Source: Octopus vulgaris
Lineage: Eukaryota
NCBI GenBank assembly: GCA_951406725.2
Contig: OX597818.1
Coordinates: forward strand, 97,154,001 to 97,218,000
Length of the DNA stretch: 64,000 bases
Direction: 5' to 3'
Shown: positions 8,367 through 61,881 of the stretch, piece after piece
Layout: the number at the start of each line of letters is the position of its first letter
Position numbering within the stretch: position 1 is the stretch's first letter
The notes under the pieces: generated by a model
What the model was told of the DNA's origin: nothing
The model's database searches: none
The model's input: the letters and a program-made list of their open reading frames with translations, nothing else
Made by a program: the position numbers and the translations under genes

Positions 8367-8418
8367 GTCTCCGATGAAGGGATATAATTAATAAATATCC
8401 TGGAAACAGCTGTAAGAC
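8367..8418 (+). ncRNA. Type I hammerhead ribozyme motif
   Basis: gucu-CCGAUGA-a-gggauau(9 nt)auauccu-g-GAAA-cagcug-UA^agac, with palindromic stem III ACAGCUGU. Confidence 0.8.
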
Positions 8419-10399
8419 CTTCTATCTATAAATGTTATAATATCTACACAGCCTTGGTTTTTTATCTCATTACGCAAAAAATTCTTATGAGACTTATATG
8501 CATACATACATACATACATACATACATGTGTGTATGTGAATGTATGTAATGTAATAATGTATAACAGTGTAAAAATGTAAACTACAGTGATCTCTAAAAT
8601 ACATATATACAGTATGATAAAAAGAAAAATGTGGCAAGACATGTGTACATATGCATAAATATGTATTTATGAATATGCATTGGATAGGTTCTCTCTCTCT
8701 TTATTTCTACTCCTCTCTATCTGTGTCTTTATATATCTATGTATATATTTGTGTGTGTGTCTATATATGTGTGTCTGTGTGTATGAATGTGTGTGTATAT
8801 ATATATATATATATATGTATATATACATATACATATATATGTCGTCATCATCATCATCATCATCATCATTCTACATTCTTTTTTCTTTGCTCATAAGGTT
8901 TAAACAGATCTTCTCCTTCATAATGTCTTGCCACATGATGTGGTCCTTTGTCATCCCCAGCTTTTTGAGATTCAGGAAGCCAGCATGTGTTTCCACTACT
9001 TCTTTCCATGCCTTCTGAAAGAGTAATTTTGATTTGTATTGCTCAAAATTTCTTCATTCAATTGGCATCCTAAATGGGTACCACATGTCCATACCAGTAC
9101 TCTCTTCAACATTACAGCTGATTCCTTTTATACCAATATTTTTACTTCCTTAGCTCCTGTGTGCTCAGTTAGGCATACATTGAAATGATACACAATCAAG
9201 GGAGCTTTCTTACCTCCTTGTTTTTCAGATTTTAAGATGCAACCCCTACATCTAATGTTCATGTTTTTCCGCTATGCAATATCACACATGATATACAAGT
9301 GTCACTTAGAGATGCAATCTCTTTGTGGTCTTTGTGGTCTTCATAAGTAATAGATCACTTGACTTTTTTTACCTACCATTACCCTGTCTATTATACTTTT
9401 GCAACTCCCACCACAACTGCTGATTAGGTCACTAAAGTATCAGGAGCTGTCAACTAAAACTAGTGAGCCTTCCAGACAGGTGAACGGATTCATTACAAGA
9501 GGTAATGGTATCTTATTGCCAACAGTTTATATTAGTATACAGTGTGTATGTGTATATATATGTGTGTGTGTGTGTGTGTGTGTGTGTGTGTGTGTGTGCA
9601 CGCGCGCGCATGTGTGCGTGTGTGTGTGTGTGCGCATGAGTGTGTGTGTGTGTGTGTGTGTGTGAGAAAAATAAGAAGATGGAGATAAATCAATTAATAA
9701 GTATATTTTTTTAACTGCAAAAATAAACAATCTCTAACAGTTGTTTTGATTCATACTTTAAAGATTATAATTGTGATAATTAAATCATTTTATAAAGCAG
9801 AGTCTCATCAGAGGCAGAAAAAAAGATATATCGTTATATTATTTTATTAGATGTTAAATATATGGAACATCATTAGGTGTTAAATGTATGGAACATTGCT
9901 ATCCCTTAATGAAGCTTATCCAACCTCTAATTGAACATATATATATGTGTGTATATATATATATATATATAAGTCACAATGTATGGATTCAAACTAATCC
10001 GATGGTATTCACAAAAAAAGTTCCTTAATGTATCATGCTACAAAACACATAGGAAAACCTAACAAGTGTATAGAATTATAAATAAAGAGAGAAATATACT
10101 GTGATAAAGATTGATTTTGTTATTGGATATTCATATTTAACAATTATTTCACAGCTTAATAAACATGTATAAATAATTTATTTTATTATATTTTATGATA
10201 AATGATAAATTACTTACATGTCTCTATTAATATATTTACAATTTTTAAATTGATGCAGATATTAAGAGTAAAAGAATATATATGCATATAAAATAGTGAT
10301 TTGATGAAGATCTCAAGTATTTTCCATAAATGGCTTATTCAACTAGTCTACTCTTTATGTATGGAGTCCCACCATCAGTAAATATGTTTATTCCTTTTC

Positions 10400-10895
10400 A
10401 ACAAGTTCATTTGCAATTATGAGGTTTCAATGGAAGGACTATATTACCAATGAAGAAGTTCTGCTCTGGGCCTGACAGCCCAGCATTGAAGTTAGCATGA
10501 CACCACCTCCACTGGTCAGGACATCTCATATGTATGCCTCAGACGTGCCTCCCCACAATCACCTTTTTGAGGAGTTGGCCTCAGGCACCAGACCATATGG
10601 AAGCTCCCAATTCCGTTTCTGAGACCAGCTCAAGGTCACTCTTCTCCACCACTCCATTGACTCAAATGCTTGGGAGACAGTGCCAAAGAGATGGCATGTC
10701 AGACCAGATGAAAAATAACAGATGTCAAGAGGCAAAAATGCAAAGATTGACTTGCACATCCTTGTCTCCTGCCAACCTTCTTCTGGGATAAGTGCTCCCA
10801 CCACCGACTCTTCTATACTGTCCTTGGCCTATACAGTCACCTCAGACATTGGCATACTTCACACCCATCATGATGAAGTAGTTCAATTACTTGCT
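10400..10895 (+). mobile_element. Decayed RTE LINE 3' end
   Basis: Remnants ..DYITNEEVL.., LHWSGHLICMPQTCLP and AWETVPKRW. Confidence 0.7.
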
Positions 10896-13762
10896 AGAGA
10901 TTAACTACTCGGATATGAATTAATGCCGACAACCATGATATATATATATATATATATATATATATATATATATATATATATATATTTAATTCTTTTATTC
11001 TTTATTCTTATATATATATATATATATATATACACATATATATGTAGCCGTAGAAACTTTATGTATGGAGTCCCAACAGTAAATATATATATATATATAT
11101 ATATATATATATGTAGCTGTAGAAACCATGCCAAATCAGACTGGAGTCTGGTGCAGCCTTCCAGCTTGCTAGCCCTGGTCCAACCCATGCCAGCATAGAC
11201 AATGGACTTTAAATGATGATGATGATGATGATGTATCTCATGGTGATGATCACCAGCCTGTAACATCTATTTTTACATGCTTGCATGGGTTGGATTGAAT
11301 TTGTTAGGGTGGATTTTCTACAATCAGATGCCCTTTCTGTCAGCAACTCATCACATCTGTTTCCAAGTAAAGTAATTTTTTCCCATAATCAGGCATGTTT
11401 TCACAGAAGGTTGGAAACAAAATACACAGCTTGCGCGAAGGTAACATATGCACATACACAAAACACACACACACATGCACACACACACACACACACACAA
11501 TTGTCAATTATGTCAATTATTTTCAAATTTGAATGAAGTATATAATATTAATTATGTTTAAATTTCCATGAATTAGATTTTATTAAAAAAAACAAGGATG
11601 GAAAAAATGTCTGAAGATGAGAGAGAAAGGAGAGAAAAAATAAGAACATGAATAAGAAAAAAAGAAGAATAGGTGTAAAGTTTATGGTAAAAATAATTAA
11701 GGTTCGTCGTGTATAAAAGTGAGAAAACTACTGGATGTAAAATAAATGTGAAGTGGAGAAATGTGTTTGAGGAATTATGGAAGATTTCTTGAATTAGAGA
11801 GTTTCAAATATAAACAGTAATTTGGAGAAGTGAAAGCAAAATGGCAAGAGAGAGAGACGGGGAGAAAGAGAGAGAGAGAGAGAGAGAGAGAGAGAGAAAC
11901 TAAGGAAATAAACATTTTGAGAAACATAGATGGTAAAGAACTAAGAAAAAAGAGAATATAAAAATAATAATGGTTTCAAAATTTTGGCATAAACCCATCA
12001 ATTTTAGTAGGAGGGGCATGGTTGGTTACATCGACCCTAGTGCTCAACTGGTAGTTATTTTATTGACCCTGAAAGGATGATTGGCTGAGTTGATCTGGGT
12101 AGTATTTGAACTTGACTGTAAAGAGCTAAAAAAAATTGCTGCTGACCATTCTGTCAATTTACTCCCTTTTTTAATTTTTCCAAATTTTGGCACAAGGCCA
12201 GAAATTTTAGGAGGAGTTAGTCAATTCCATTGACCCCATTTCTTGACTGGTACTTTATTCTATTGACCCCCAAAGGGAATAAAAGCTCACTATTCTCATC
12301 CACCTTTTAGAAAATTTTCCTTTTCAAGTAAAACCTGAAAAGTTGATGAGGGCTTGGACAAAGAGAAAGGGCTATTACGTGATGGAAATTTGAAGCTGGG
12401 TTTTTGCTTTACAATCTCTCCTGTTTAATTAAAGGATCCCAATGAACTATGCTTGGCCTATTGATAGCCTTGTATATTCCTTGATTCTTTGAATCATCTT
12501 ATCTTCCAATATCATTCTATATCTATGATGTTGACTTTGTTCCACAGCATTTGTTGATTCTTCCTTCTTTACAAATGTTTGATTTCTCTGCCAAACCACA
12601 TATGGATTTATGATGCTCTTTTAATTTGACAAGGCTCCCACAGAAGAAGCCTTGTCAGTAGTTCAAGATTAAGTGAAATAGAATTATTCTTCAAGAATTC
12701 CTGTGATTAGTACCTAGTGGCTGGCTGAAGTGAAATGATGGGTAATCTCATGAAACTGCTGTTTTTTTACATCAGAGCAGTCTTCTTCTAGACGGATGCT
12801 GTGACAATAGCTAGAGGTCCCTCACTTCCAGTGGTTTTACTGTGTTCCCTGACACCAACCAAGAGTATTTCTAAGTCTCTGTGCTCAGATGGAATGTCAT
12901 CACATATGTTAGTTAACTCATAGCTGGGACCCTGACAGGTGCTACTAGTCTGAGTCAGAACAGACTTGGGAACAATCGTGTCTAAGAGGTAATTCCACAC
13001 CTAGCTATGCACTGCTGTGAAGATGGTTACTGAAAGCAAACCCCTTGTACGAAGCACCTGTGAATAAATGGGTTTTGAATTTACTCCGCCTGAGAACTTC
13101 ATTCTTCGTATTTTCAGCTCCCTGAATCAACAGAATAATTATAAAGGAAGAAGAAGATACCCCAAAAGTATCATAAAAACCCTCCTTCCATTATACATAC
13201 ATACATAATTAATGAACAGCACCAAAATACCTAAGCTAAGATTTGAAACTGAATTCACATTTTTCCACACTGTCAAACAAGTTCTTGGCCTATTGTCTTA
13301 GCCTTTCAGTGCTAAGAAATTAATGAGAGTGAGTTGACCTCAGATCTTTTTCGAGTTATTCGCAGGTCAAAACTGATATAGTGAAGGATCCTATTGTTCT
13401 TGGCTGACCTAATTAAATTAGAGAAGCAGATATCAGTTGACCTCATTCGGCCATCCAGCATCAGGCCGAAGAGCAAGCTTTCTCTCTCTTGATTGACCTG
13501 TCTTGTGGTCAAAGAGTAACTCTTCTCAGGATGTTGATCAACGCACGAAGCTAGTCCTCCCATAGTTGCTATCTGCATACATTCCTTTTATTTTGGATTT
13601 CTCGCAAGCAGTCACAGAAATGAAACTACTTACTATCATATGAAATGGACTGGAGATCTACAAACAAGCTGTGTATATACAAGCAGCTTGATGAAGTTGT
13701 ATATATCTTATACATTGTAACGACTAATATTATTATCATCTTAATAAATGGCCATTTTAAAA

Positions 13763-61163: not shown

Positions 61164-61476
61164 TGGTTTCCGCTTCATCGGGGAATTACCTCCCTTTGCA
61201 GGTTTAGGGCACCGTGACGGTGTCGAGCCTTTCTGGTGACGTCGATGTTCGCCTGGGGCTAAATGCAACAGTAACACCCCCACCACCCTGCCCTGTCCCT
61301 AGCCATATTCAGATGGCTTTAGTCCCTTATGTTATCGAGCAGTTACTGTCTATATCCCTTTTAGAGAATTATTATTGCTTTCGAACAGATTTTCGAAATC
61401 AGCAAATGTATTTTGCTTGAAAATCTATATAAGAAATCCTGCATAGTGAGAATTCGTCGAGGAAGCGGAGGCCTAC

Positions 61477-61522
61477 CACACGCCGATGATAGGCAATACA
61501 CCTTGAAACCATGGTCCGTGTG
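61477..61522 (+). ncRNA. Type I hammerhead ribozyme motif, array copy 3
   Basis: Same motif, offset by 718 bp. Confidence 0.8.
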
Positions 61523-61835
61523 TGGTTTCCGCTTCATCGGGGAATTACCTCCCTTTGCAGGTTTAGGGCACCGTGACGGTGTCGAGCCTTTCTGGTGACG
61601 TCGATGTTCGCCTGGGGCTAAATGCAACAGTAACACCCCCACCACCCTGCCCTGTCCCTAGCCATATTCAGATGGCTTTAGTCCCTTATGTTATCGAGCA
61701 GTTACTGTCTATATCCCTTTTAGAGAATTATTATTGCTTTCGAACAGATTTTCGAAATCAGCAAATGTATTTTGCTTGAAAATCTATATAAGAAATCCTG
61801 CATAGTGAGAATTCGTCGAGGAAGCGGAGGCCTAC

Positions 61836-61881
61836 CACACGCCGATGATAGGCAATACACCTTGAAACCATGGTCCGTGTG
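61836..61881 (+). ncRNA. Type I hammerhead ribozyme motif, array copy 4
   Basis: Same motif, offset by 1077 bp. Confidence 0.8.

Follow-up and report, generated by a model that had tools for sequence, protein, structure and literature searches.

The stretch of DNA analysed here, a window of 64,000 nucleotides from Octopus vulgaris (contig OX597818.1; C5:97154001-97218000 of the 2.80-Gb genome, assembled in 227 contigs), is rich in microsatellites, has a GC content of 37% and contains 13 type I hammerhead ribozyme motifs recognised by inspection (Table 1). These motifs belong to seven repeat families, as the copies at 21452, 36.2 kb and 60232 are members of one superfamily. Eight of the 13 (the four copies of a tandem array and those at 8367, 28485, 56110 and 56825) retain the stems and the core, which comprises CUGANGA or a known variant at C3-A9, GAAA and UH, while the other five are halved or mutated. 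The first-pass annotation of this DNA had listed many hammerhead families, each with a stem III palindrome of its own. All eight stem III sequences given there are present where it had placed them, but the sites at 7990 and 36.2 kb are halves, while those at 21452 and 60232 have core changes.

Hammerhead families of the window

Family sizes are given as exact-pattern matches in the genome and are therefore floors, several of the patterns spanning the 3' half of the ribozyme only; tallies within families were counted by eye on the first 100 matches listed, which come from the first contigs and include non-independent tandem and inverted copies. The patterns yield 8,588 (ACGU), 4,958 (8367), 1,800 (21452), 915 (array), 327 (56110), 297 (array sisters) and 34 (7990) matches, against 0 or 1 for reversed-pattern controls.

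A short palindromic stem III is typical of six of the seven families. The exception is the 56110 family, where AGAACU occurs in 87 of the first 100 of 327 matches and no perfect palindrome occurs among those 100 (one AGAGCT-type near miss is also non-palindromic), so that the sequence earlier described as near-palindromic is a fixed form and no decayed palindrome. The site at 56825, previously given as A(C/U)GU, reads AUGU and is a decayed copy of a family with ACGU in 92 of the first 100 of 8,588 matches. In the 8367 family, whose 3' end is fixed just before (TA)n and whose tail is optional, the palindrome is lost in 26 of the first 100 matches. The nearest kin of the 60232 copy carry ACGGUCGU or ACGGCCGU. 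Inverted pairs occur at 7990, 36.2 kb and 56.1-56.7 kb; the inversion junctions at 7974-8014 and 36140-36272 are no more than about 16 bases from the site of predicted cleavage and lie toward the palindrome.

Table 1. Hammerhead motifs and retrozyme features of the window (positions are those of the window)
Feature	Position	Strand	Remarks
Array hammerhead 1	60759..60804	+	Core CCGAUGA, stem III ACCAUGGU, predicted cut after 60798
Array hammerhead 2	61118..61163	+	Descriptor match
Array hammerhead 3	61477..61522	+	Descriptor match
Array hammerhead 4	61836..61881	+	Descriptor match
Hammerhead, stem III ACAGCUGU	8367..8418	+	Within 3' end of Penelope-like element (PLE) type, 5'-truncated; 4,958 pattern matches
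Hammerhead 3' half, ACGCGU	7981..7996	-	Inversion junction; lacks CUGANGA; kin carry full motif
Hammerhead, broken core CUGAUGG, ACAAUUGU	21452..21537	+	Sister sub-lineage of ACGAUCGU family
Hammerhead, ACGGCCGU, long stem II	28485..28571	-	Small old family
Hammerhead 3' half, ACGAUCGU	36195..36210	-	Inverted-repeat loop (36140-36272); lacks CUGANGA
Hammerhead, non-palindromic AGAACU	56110..56149	-	Arm of inverted pair 56066-56285 / 56509-56728
Second AGAACU copy, G10.1-C11.1 pair lost	56645..56684	+	Absent from the first-pass annotation
Minimal hammerhead, AUGU (family form ACGU)	56825..56859	-	8,588 pattern matches
Decayed hammerhead, GCGGUCGU, A15.1 lost	60232..60317	+	ACGAUCGU/ACGGCCGU superfamily
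Whole 359-bp retrozyme insertion	60380..62097		Short inverted arm and 4.3-copy tandem arm, between two (TA)n tracts
Inverted arm	60380..60545	-	Outer end near unit position 175-178, no tail
Tandem arm	60542..62097	+	359-bp unit, 99% matches, ends at unit position 222, 44-bp tail
Array-lineage 3'-end fragment, older, 90% identity	5869..6004	+	Tail present, no ribozyme, (TA)n on both sides

Abundance in the genome

The final descriptors, which have a strict and a relaxed form, demand no palindrome and are still escaped by U3-G8 cores; they superseded a first descriptor that was blind to CCGAUGA cores. The strict form has three matches in the window (two palindromic), whereas 50 local dinucleotide shuffles give a mean of 0.38 (0.0); for the relaxed form the figures are 11 (six palindromic) and 2.4 (0.06). 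The motifs of the window thus exceed chance. Over 120 systematically spaced 10-kb pieces of contigs C1-C13, 1.2 Mb in total, there are 47 strict matches against 8.7 in shuffles, and palindromes of at least 4 nt are found in 23 against 0.5. The excess of about 32 per Mb extrapolates to about 90,000 motifs genome-wide (bootstrap 53,000-132,000), which bears out the earlier suggestion of a large genome-wide ribozyme load. The density of the window itself is ordinary for the genome (P=0.40 for three or more strict matches in about 64 kb). A same-strand relative lies within 5 kb of at least seven of 56 sampled motifs, a floor owing to piece edges. The genome-wide load is thus large and mostly inert. 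The Rfam hammerhead models have no match in the whole window at the gathering score and none in the array alone at E<=5; short-stem variants may fall outside these models.

Covariation of stem III

The self-complementarity kept between differing families had earlier been offered as covariation. As unrelated families provide no strict evidence of this kind, sister lineages were compared, and these do covary. The array lineage uses four palindromes (ACCAUGGU, ACCUAGGU, ACUAUAGU and ACUGCAGU), in which even the central pair changes (AU, UA or GC). The first 100 of its 915 matches are all palindromic (91 ACCATGGT, 9 ACCTAGGT), as are the first 100 of the 297 matches of the older sisters (96 ACTATAGT, 4 ACTGCAGT), the whole units of the lineages aligning at 93% and about 70%. 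In an alignment of eight natural copies (seven distinct rows; row L096 was left out as misplaced), 96% of the cells are paired and four pairs show two-sided changes, namely both inner palindrome pairs and two stem I pairs, while the core pair 3-8 is CG, UG or UA. The shuffle control of this alignment gives no probability, because the rows are related. In the 21452 superfamily the first 100 of 1,800 matches comprise 76 ACGATCGT, 16 ACAATTGT and eight single changes, the 16 double changes exceeding the five matching single ones. The palindromes are family-typical and truly covarying, the AGAACU family excepted.

It is scarcely credible that chance, CpG decay or inversion produced the palindromes. 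ACAAUUGU and ACAGCUGU are each two CpG-type transitions away from another listed palindrome, two sites of the window lie at inversion junctions and single CpG-type decays are common. A chance origin is contradicted by the palindromic excess over shuffles across 1.2 Mb and by the reversed-pattern controls, and CpG decay by the ratio of double to matching single changes in the 21452 superfamily and by the AU/UA/GC swaps, which fall outside it. ACAAUUGU was itself considered as a decay product and rejected, as the tally of its superfamily reveals a genuine sub-lineage. An origin by chance or decay is thus refuted for the families as a whole, while for single copies it may hold.

The 359-bp retrozyme array

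The array has the marks of a non-LTR (long terminal repeat) retrozyme, that is, dispersed, non-coding tandem units of 150-450 bp that each carry a type I hammerhead. It contains no open reading frame (ORF) of 110 or more amino acids; its unit has a GC content of 0.45 and 915 motif copies, with identical units on many contigs, and the monomer is strongly self-paired (z=-4.6). Among 21 loci examined (the window and 20 of its best BLAST matches), 19 consist of two arms placed head to head. All 19 end at unit positions 170-178 on one side and 218-222 on the other and carry the 44-bp tail on exactly one arm, and 18 of them are held in or adjoined by TA-rich repeats. Where both ends are resolved in sister lineages (70-93% identity), four loci have the same ends and L272 differs. 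Private variants span both arms in L219 (five units), L220 (13 units) and most of L201. Judged by its sequence, the array is a young non-LTR retrozyme with the insertion footprint of a PLE.

Such a footprint could be produced if cut 359-nt monomers circularise. A Neptune-type PLE protein would then cut both strands of (TA)n DNA and begin synthesis at each of the two ends, using start sites that lie 44 nt apart; by rolling on the circle, this synthesis would lay the two head-to-head tandem arms in one step. The arrays might instead have grown locally, as satellites do, by unequal crossover from single inserted PLE ends, a model proposed in bioRxiv 10.64898/2026.07.22.740005, and both L201 and the window array are mosaic at one site. 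Local growth is nevertheless unlikely, as identical units occur on many contigs, both arms are tandem and end at two fixed sites, and private variants are shared across the inversion.

Two array insertions outside pure (TA)n, L212 and L214, are flanked by AT-rich direct repeats of about 8 bp that resemble target-site duplications. At L269:536-4886 a sister retrozyme and a flanking LINE (long interspersed nuclear element) fragment form a 1.38-kb unit that is repeated four times in tandem, while L240:7700-8700 holds a further tandem retrozyme-like family with a spacing of about 364 bp, a U3-A8 core and ACGCGU, whose sister form has ACAUGU. Assembled contigs of four runs span the array unit and connect its last bases to its first, as tandem DNA would also do. 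Two short contigs ending at 60799 were considered as traces of cleavage and rejected, as a variant 30 bases earlier explains their ends; the loose 5' end of one contig at 60738 presumably resembles a complementary DNA (cDNA) template-switch adapter and, as a single contig, is a lead only.

Candidate PLE partner

The genome encodes, outside the window, intact ORFs of 781 amino acids that combine reverse transcriptase (RT) and GIY-YIG domains with a CX4CxxC linker, and hammerheads with ACAUGU or AGUACU lie downstream of them. In two other families of the genome a hammerhead stands beside an ORF with RT and GIY-YIG in 17 of 18 and four of four copies. We infer that the array is mobilised by a Neptune-type PLE through two-ended, one-step synthesis. 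Two further candidate links were rejected: the match of the array tail to L188 belongs to a neighbouring non-coding element rather than to the PLE there, and the widely spaced array sisters on C4 and C1 are flanked by LINE-like ORFs rather than by a PLE.

Animal PLEs with an endonuclease (EN) are usually described with one ORF. Here, a second open frame of up to 479 codons from stop to stop lies upstream in the intact 781-amino-acid PLE (L184:1268-2704, and likewise in L181-L183, L186, L196 and L199) and overlaps the RT-EN frame (L184:2626-4968) by about 78 nt. This upstream frame has no Pfam or Atlas match.

Probable dimer pairing through stem III

A tandem transcript would allow two copies to form a double hammerhead, where stems I and III both exchange strands and where stem III must be self-complementary, as both partners share one sequence. 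The central two bases of the palindrome are unable to pair inside a tetraloop, and their complementarity therefore points to pairing between two copies. Nearest-neighbour energies, which leave out tertiary contacts, give the homodimer an advantage of 11-19.5 kcal/mol over a pair of monomer folds in 17 of 17 copies with palindromes of 6-8 nt. It is probable that the motifs are relics of PLEs and of small retrozymes likely moved by PLEs, and that the palindrome is kept for the pairing of identical tandem copies to cut the multimer. The family-typical sequences would be a by-product, as lineages drift between palindromes via paired changes, while copies that are mostly single or inverted after insertion could form no dimer in cis and would then decay.

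Several points weigh against this explanation. No PLE ORF is present in the window, and within 1.5-kb flanks zero or one copy per window family is linked to an ORF, none convincingly; the array unit has no match to the PLE termini covered, and neither 50 GIY-YIG loci nor 13 sister loci, a set that samples a minority of the PLE families, reveal sequence shared with the end of an autonomous PLE. The dimer model gives no gain for two copies with the 4-nt ACGU (+1.9 and +3.1 kcal/mol), and conserved imperfect stems exist (AGAACU, ACAUUUGU and odd-length forms), so that perfect self-pairing is not needed everywhere. L201 is mosaic for its private variant, the array loci are biased to young copies because the closest BLAST matches of the window were chosen, and repeats could have been homogenised during assembly. 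Cleavage, circles and transcripts of the window ribozymes are predictions, and in the one PLE tested in vitro insertion is independent of ribozyme cleavage (PMC11167929).

A possible though rather doubtful alternative is that the 8-nt forms act as monomers with two pairs and a tetraloop, the palindrome serving as a helper or, for example, in RNA pairing for a dimeric PLE protein. A single cloned copy suffices for the cleavage of coral and mussel retrozymes (PMC7229834), stem I of the array ribozyme comprises six pairs and its loop 2 resembles that of retrozymes, and the PLE protein is predicted to be dimeric and assists its own ribozyme (PMC11167929). However, the two-pair hairpin is predicted to be unstable (+2.4 to +2.9 kcal/mol), and monomer folding alone leaves the complementarity of the central bases unexplained. 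Monomer cleavage is compatible with the dimer explanation as a second mode. The earlier proposal that cleavage occurs only in multimers of the same family does not agree with published invertebrate retrozymes, where ribozymes with a two-pair stem III and a tetraloop cleave as monomers (PMC7229834).

Palindromes as proposed family labels

The first-pass annotation had further proposed that the palindrome is a family-specific barcode. In its selected form, where palindromes diverge so that related RNAs in one cell avoid cross-pairing and cutting, this is very unlikely. Palindromes would be able to discriminate, since in-register heteroduplexes of ten 8-nt palindromes reach -5.7 kcal/mol or weaker, compared with -6.4 to -14.1 for homoduplexes. 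In three of four pairs of sister lineages, moreover, the palindrome alone differs, stem I being compatible across the two (4-6 pairs). Nevertheless, ACGU, ACAUGU, ACGCGU, ACAGCUGU, ACGGCCGU, ACAAUUGU, ACGUACGU and ACACGUGU are each common to two unrelated families, several of the partners being single copies. Such sharing is no rarer than chance would give: 16 hand-picked 8-nt lineages include five pairs with a common palindrome, where 7.5 are expected at random (P=0.23; ACCTAGGT, found afterwards, was left out). The 56110 family with its at least 327 copies is, moreover, non-palindromic. In cis no barcode is needed, as tandem partners are of the same family by construction. Pairs with the same palindrome are cross-incompatible in stem I in seven of seven cases (0-2 pairs versus 3-7), and stem I, whose strands are swapped in the dimer as well, already keeps unrelated families with a common palindrome apart. 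The barcode as first proposed is therefore not sustained. The literature searched, mostly open-access main texts and without Lunse 2017, contains no paper on a palindrome barcode.

A shared stem I with differing palindromes in sister lineages leaves room for a two-part key, but drift would give the same pattern. In this quite improbable scheme, sisters sharing stem I would switch palindromes under selection, and stem I and palindrome together would separate self from non-self among the RNA parasites of one PLE enzyme, which would itself prime each insertion at either DNA end, using two different start sites of a single circle.

Other repeats and unusual stems

Families with an odd-length, centre-mismatched or 12-nt self-complementary stem III (ACUCAGAGU, ACAUUUGU, ACGGUGCAUCGU and AUUGGAACCAAU) are found at L024:3029, L054:9316, L015:9762, L084:967, L084:2616, L208, L210 and L224. 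The window also contains a degenerate (TAACCC)n tract that resembles telomeric repeats but lies within the chromosome arm (37458-37595), a fragment (29510-29881) sharing 41% identity with the LINE-type RT frame of L185, and an abundant, dispersed repeat of 240-320 bp resembling a SINE (short interspersed nuclear element), at 2053-2290, 26190-26433, 33950-34188, 34966-35287 and 40617-41035.

Significance and comparison with known systems

At its core, the finding clearly exemplifies biology that is already known: a palindromic stem III, cleavage as dimers and numerous families within one genome have been published for PLEs and retrozymes. The four array-lineage palindromes with differing central pairs provide natural genetic evidence for selected RNA-RNA pairing in a canonical-looking invertebrate retrozyme, and the sister palindromes could serve directly as matched and mismatched partners in a mixing experiment. 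The array footprint provides insertion-level evidence for the laying of arrays in one event by PLE enzymes, for which published support consists of co-occurrence and pseudo-LTR (pLTR) homology, and the intact PLE ORFs of the same genome make the mover of animal retrozymes testable in vitro. The two-part key, if true, would represent self/non-self recognition among RNA parasites sharing one PLE enzyme.

Like the minimal type I hammerheads of PLEs (Cervera and de la Pena 2014, PMC4209133), which are known to have palindromic stem III, dimers, many families and inverted pairs, the motifs described here share the type I topology, a short stem I, the U3-A8 variant, a long stem II with an extra base on the 5' side and a short palindromic stem III, as well as many consensus families of mostly solitary copies, a proposed dimer cleavage and inverted pairs a few hundred bases apart. 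The estimated density of about 32 per Mb is higher here, though obtained with our own descriptor and not one-to-one comparable with the 4,000-9,000 motifs of coelacanth and frog. Further differences are that the window families could not be tied to an ORF and that one of them has a fixed non-palindromic loop.

More than 6,000 motifs in 16 families are reported from a coral, and PLEs are named as candidate movers of retrozymes (PMC7229834). The array unit is similar in size to metazoan non-LTR retrozymes such as the 350-390 bp mussel repeat (Cervera and de la Pena 2020, PMC7229834), and shares with them the non-coding tandem unit, one canonical-like type I hammerhead, a GC content below 50%, a strongly self-paired monomer and dispersed arrays; the head-to-head PLE footprint with a one-sided tail is not described in the covered parts of that paper. 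Retrozymes as non-autonomous PLE derivatives are treated by Li, Clavereau and Pollet (2026, bioRxiv 10.64898/2026.07.22.740005), who arrive at the same mobilising partner from pLTR homology and co-occurrence, chiefly in vertebrates; neither "palindrome" nor "tail" is used in the main text of that work. No paper in the literature searched, mostly open-access main texts (including parts of PMC6765202, PMC7761336, PMC11722881 and PMC13282606), describes a head-to-head, one-tail footprint in retrozymes.

PLE insertions (Craig et al. 2021, PMC8557442) share with the array partial tandems, an inverted 5'-truncated copy and microsatellite targets, and their tail of 30-40 bp, often at one end, corresponds to the 44 bp found here on one arm in 19 of 19 loci. 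In the anole Poseidon element (Frangieh et al. 2024, PMC11167929) there are likewise two adjacent internal RT start sites, with both strands cut and extended by a protein between whose start sites the PLE tail lies. In contrast to Poseidon and other PLE insertions, the template here is a small non-coding unit, while the intact PLEs of the genome have a Neptune-type CX4CxxC linker.

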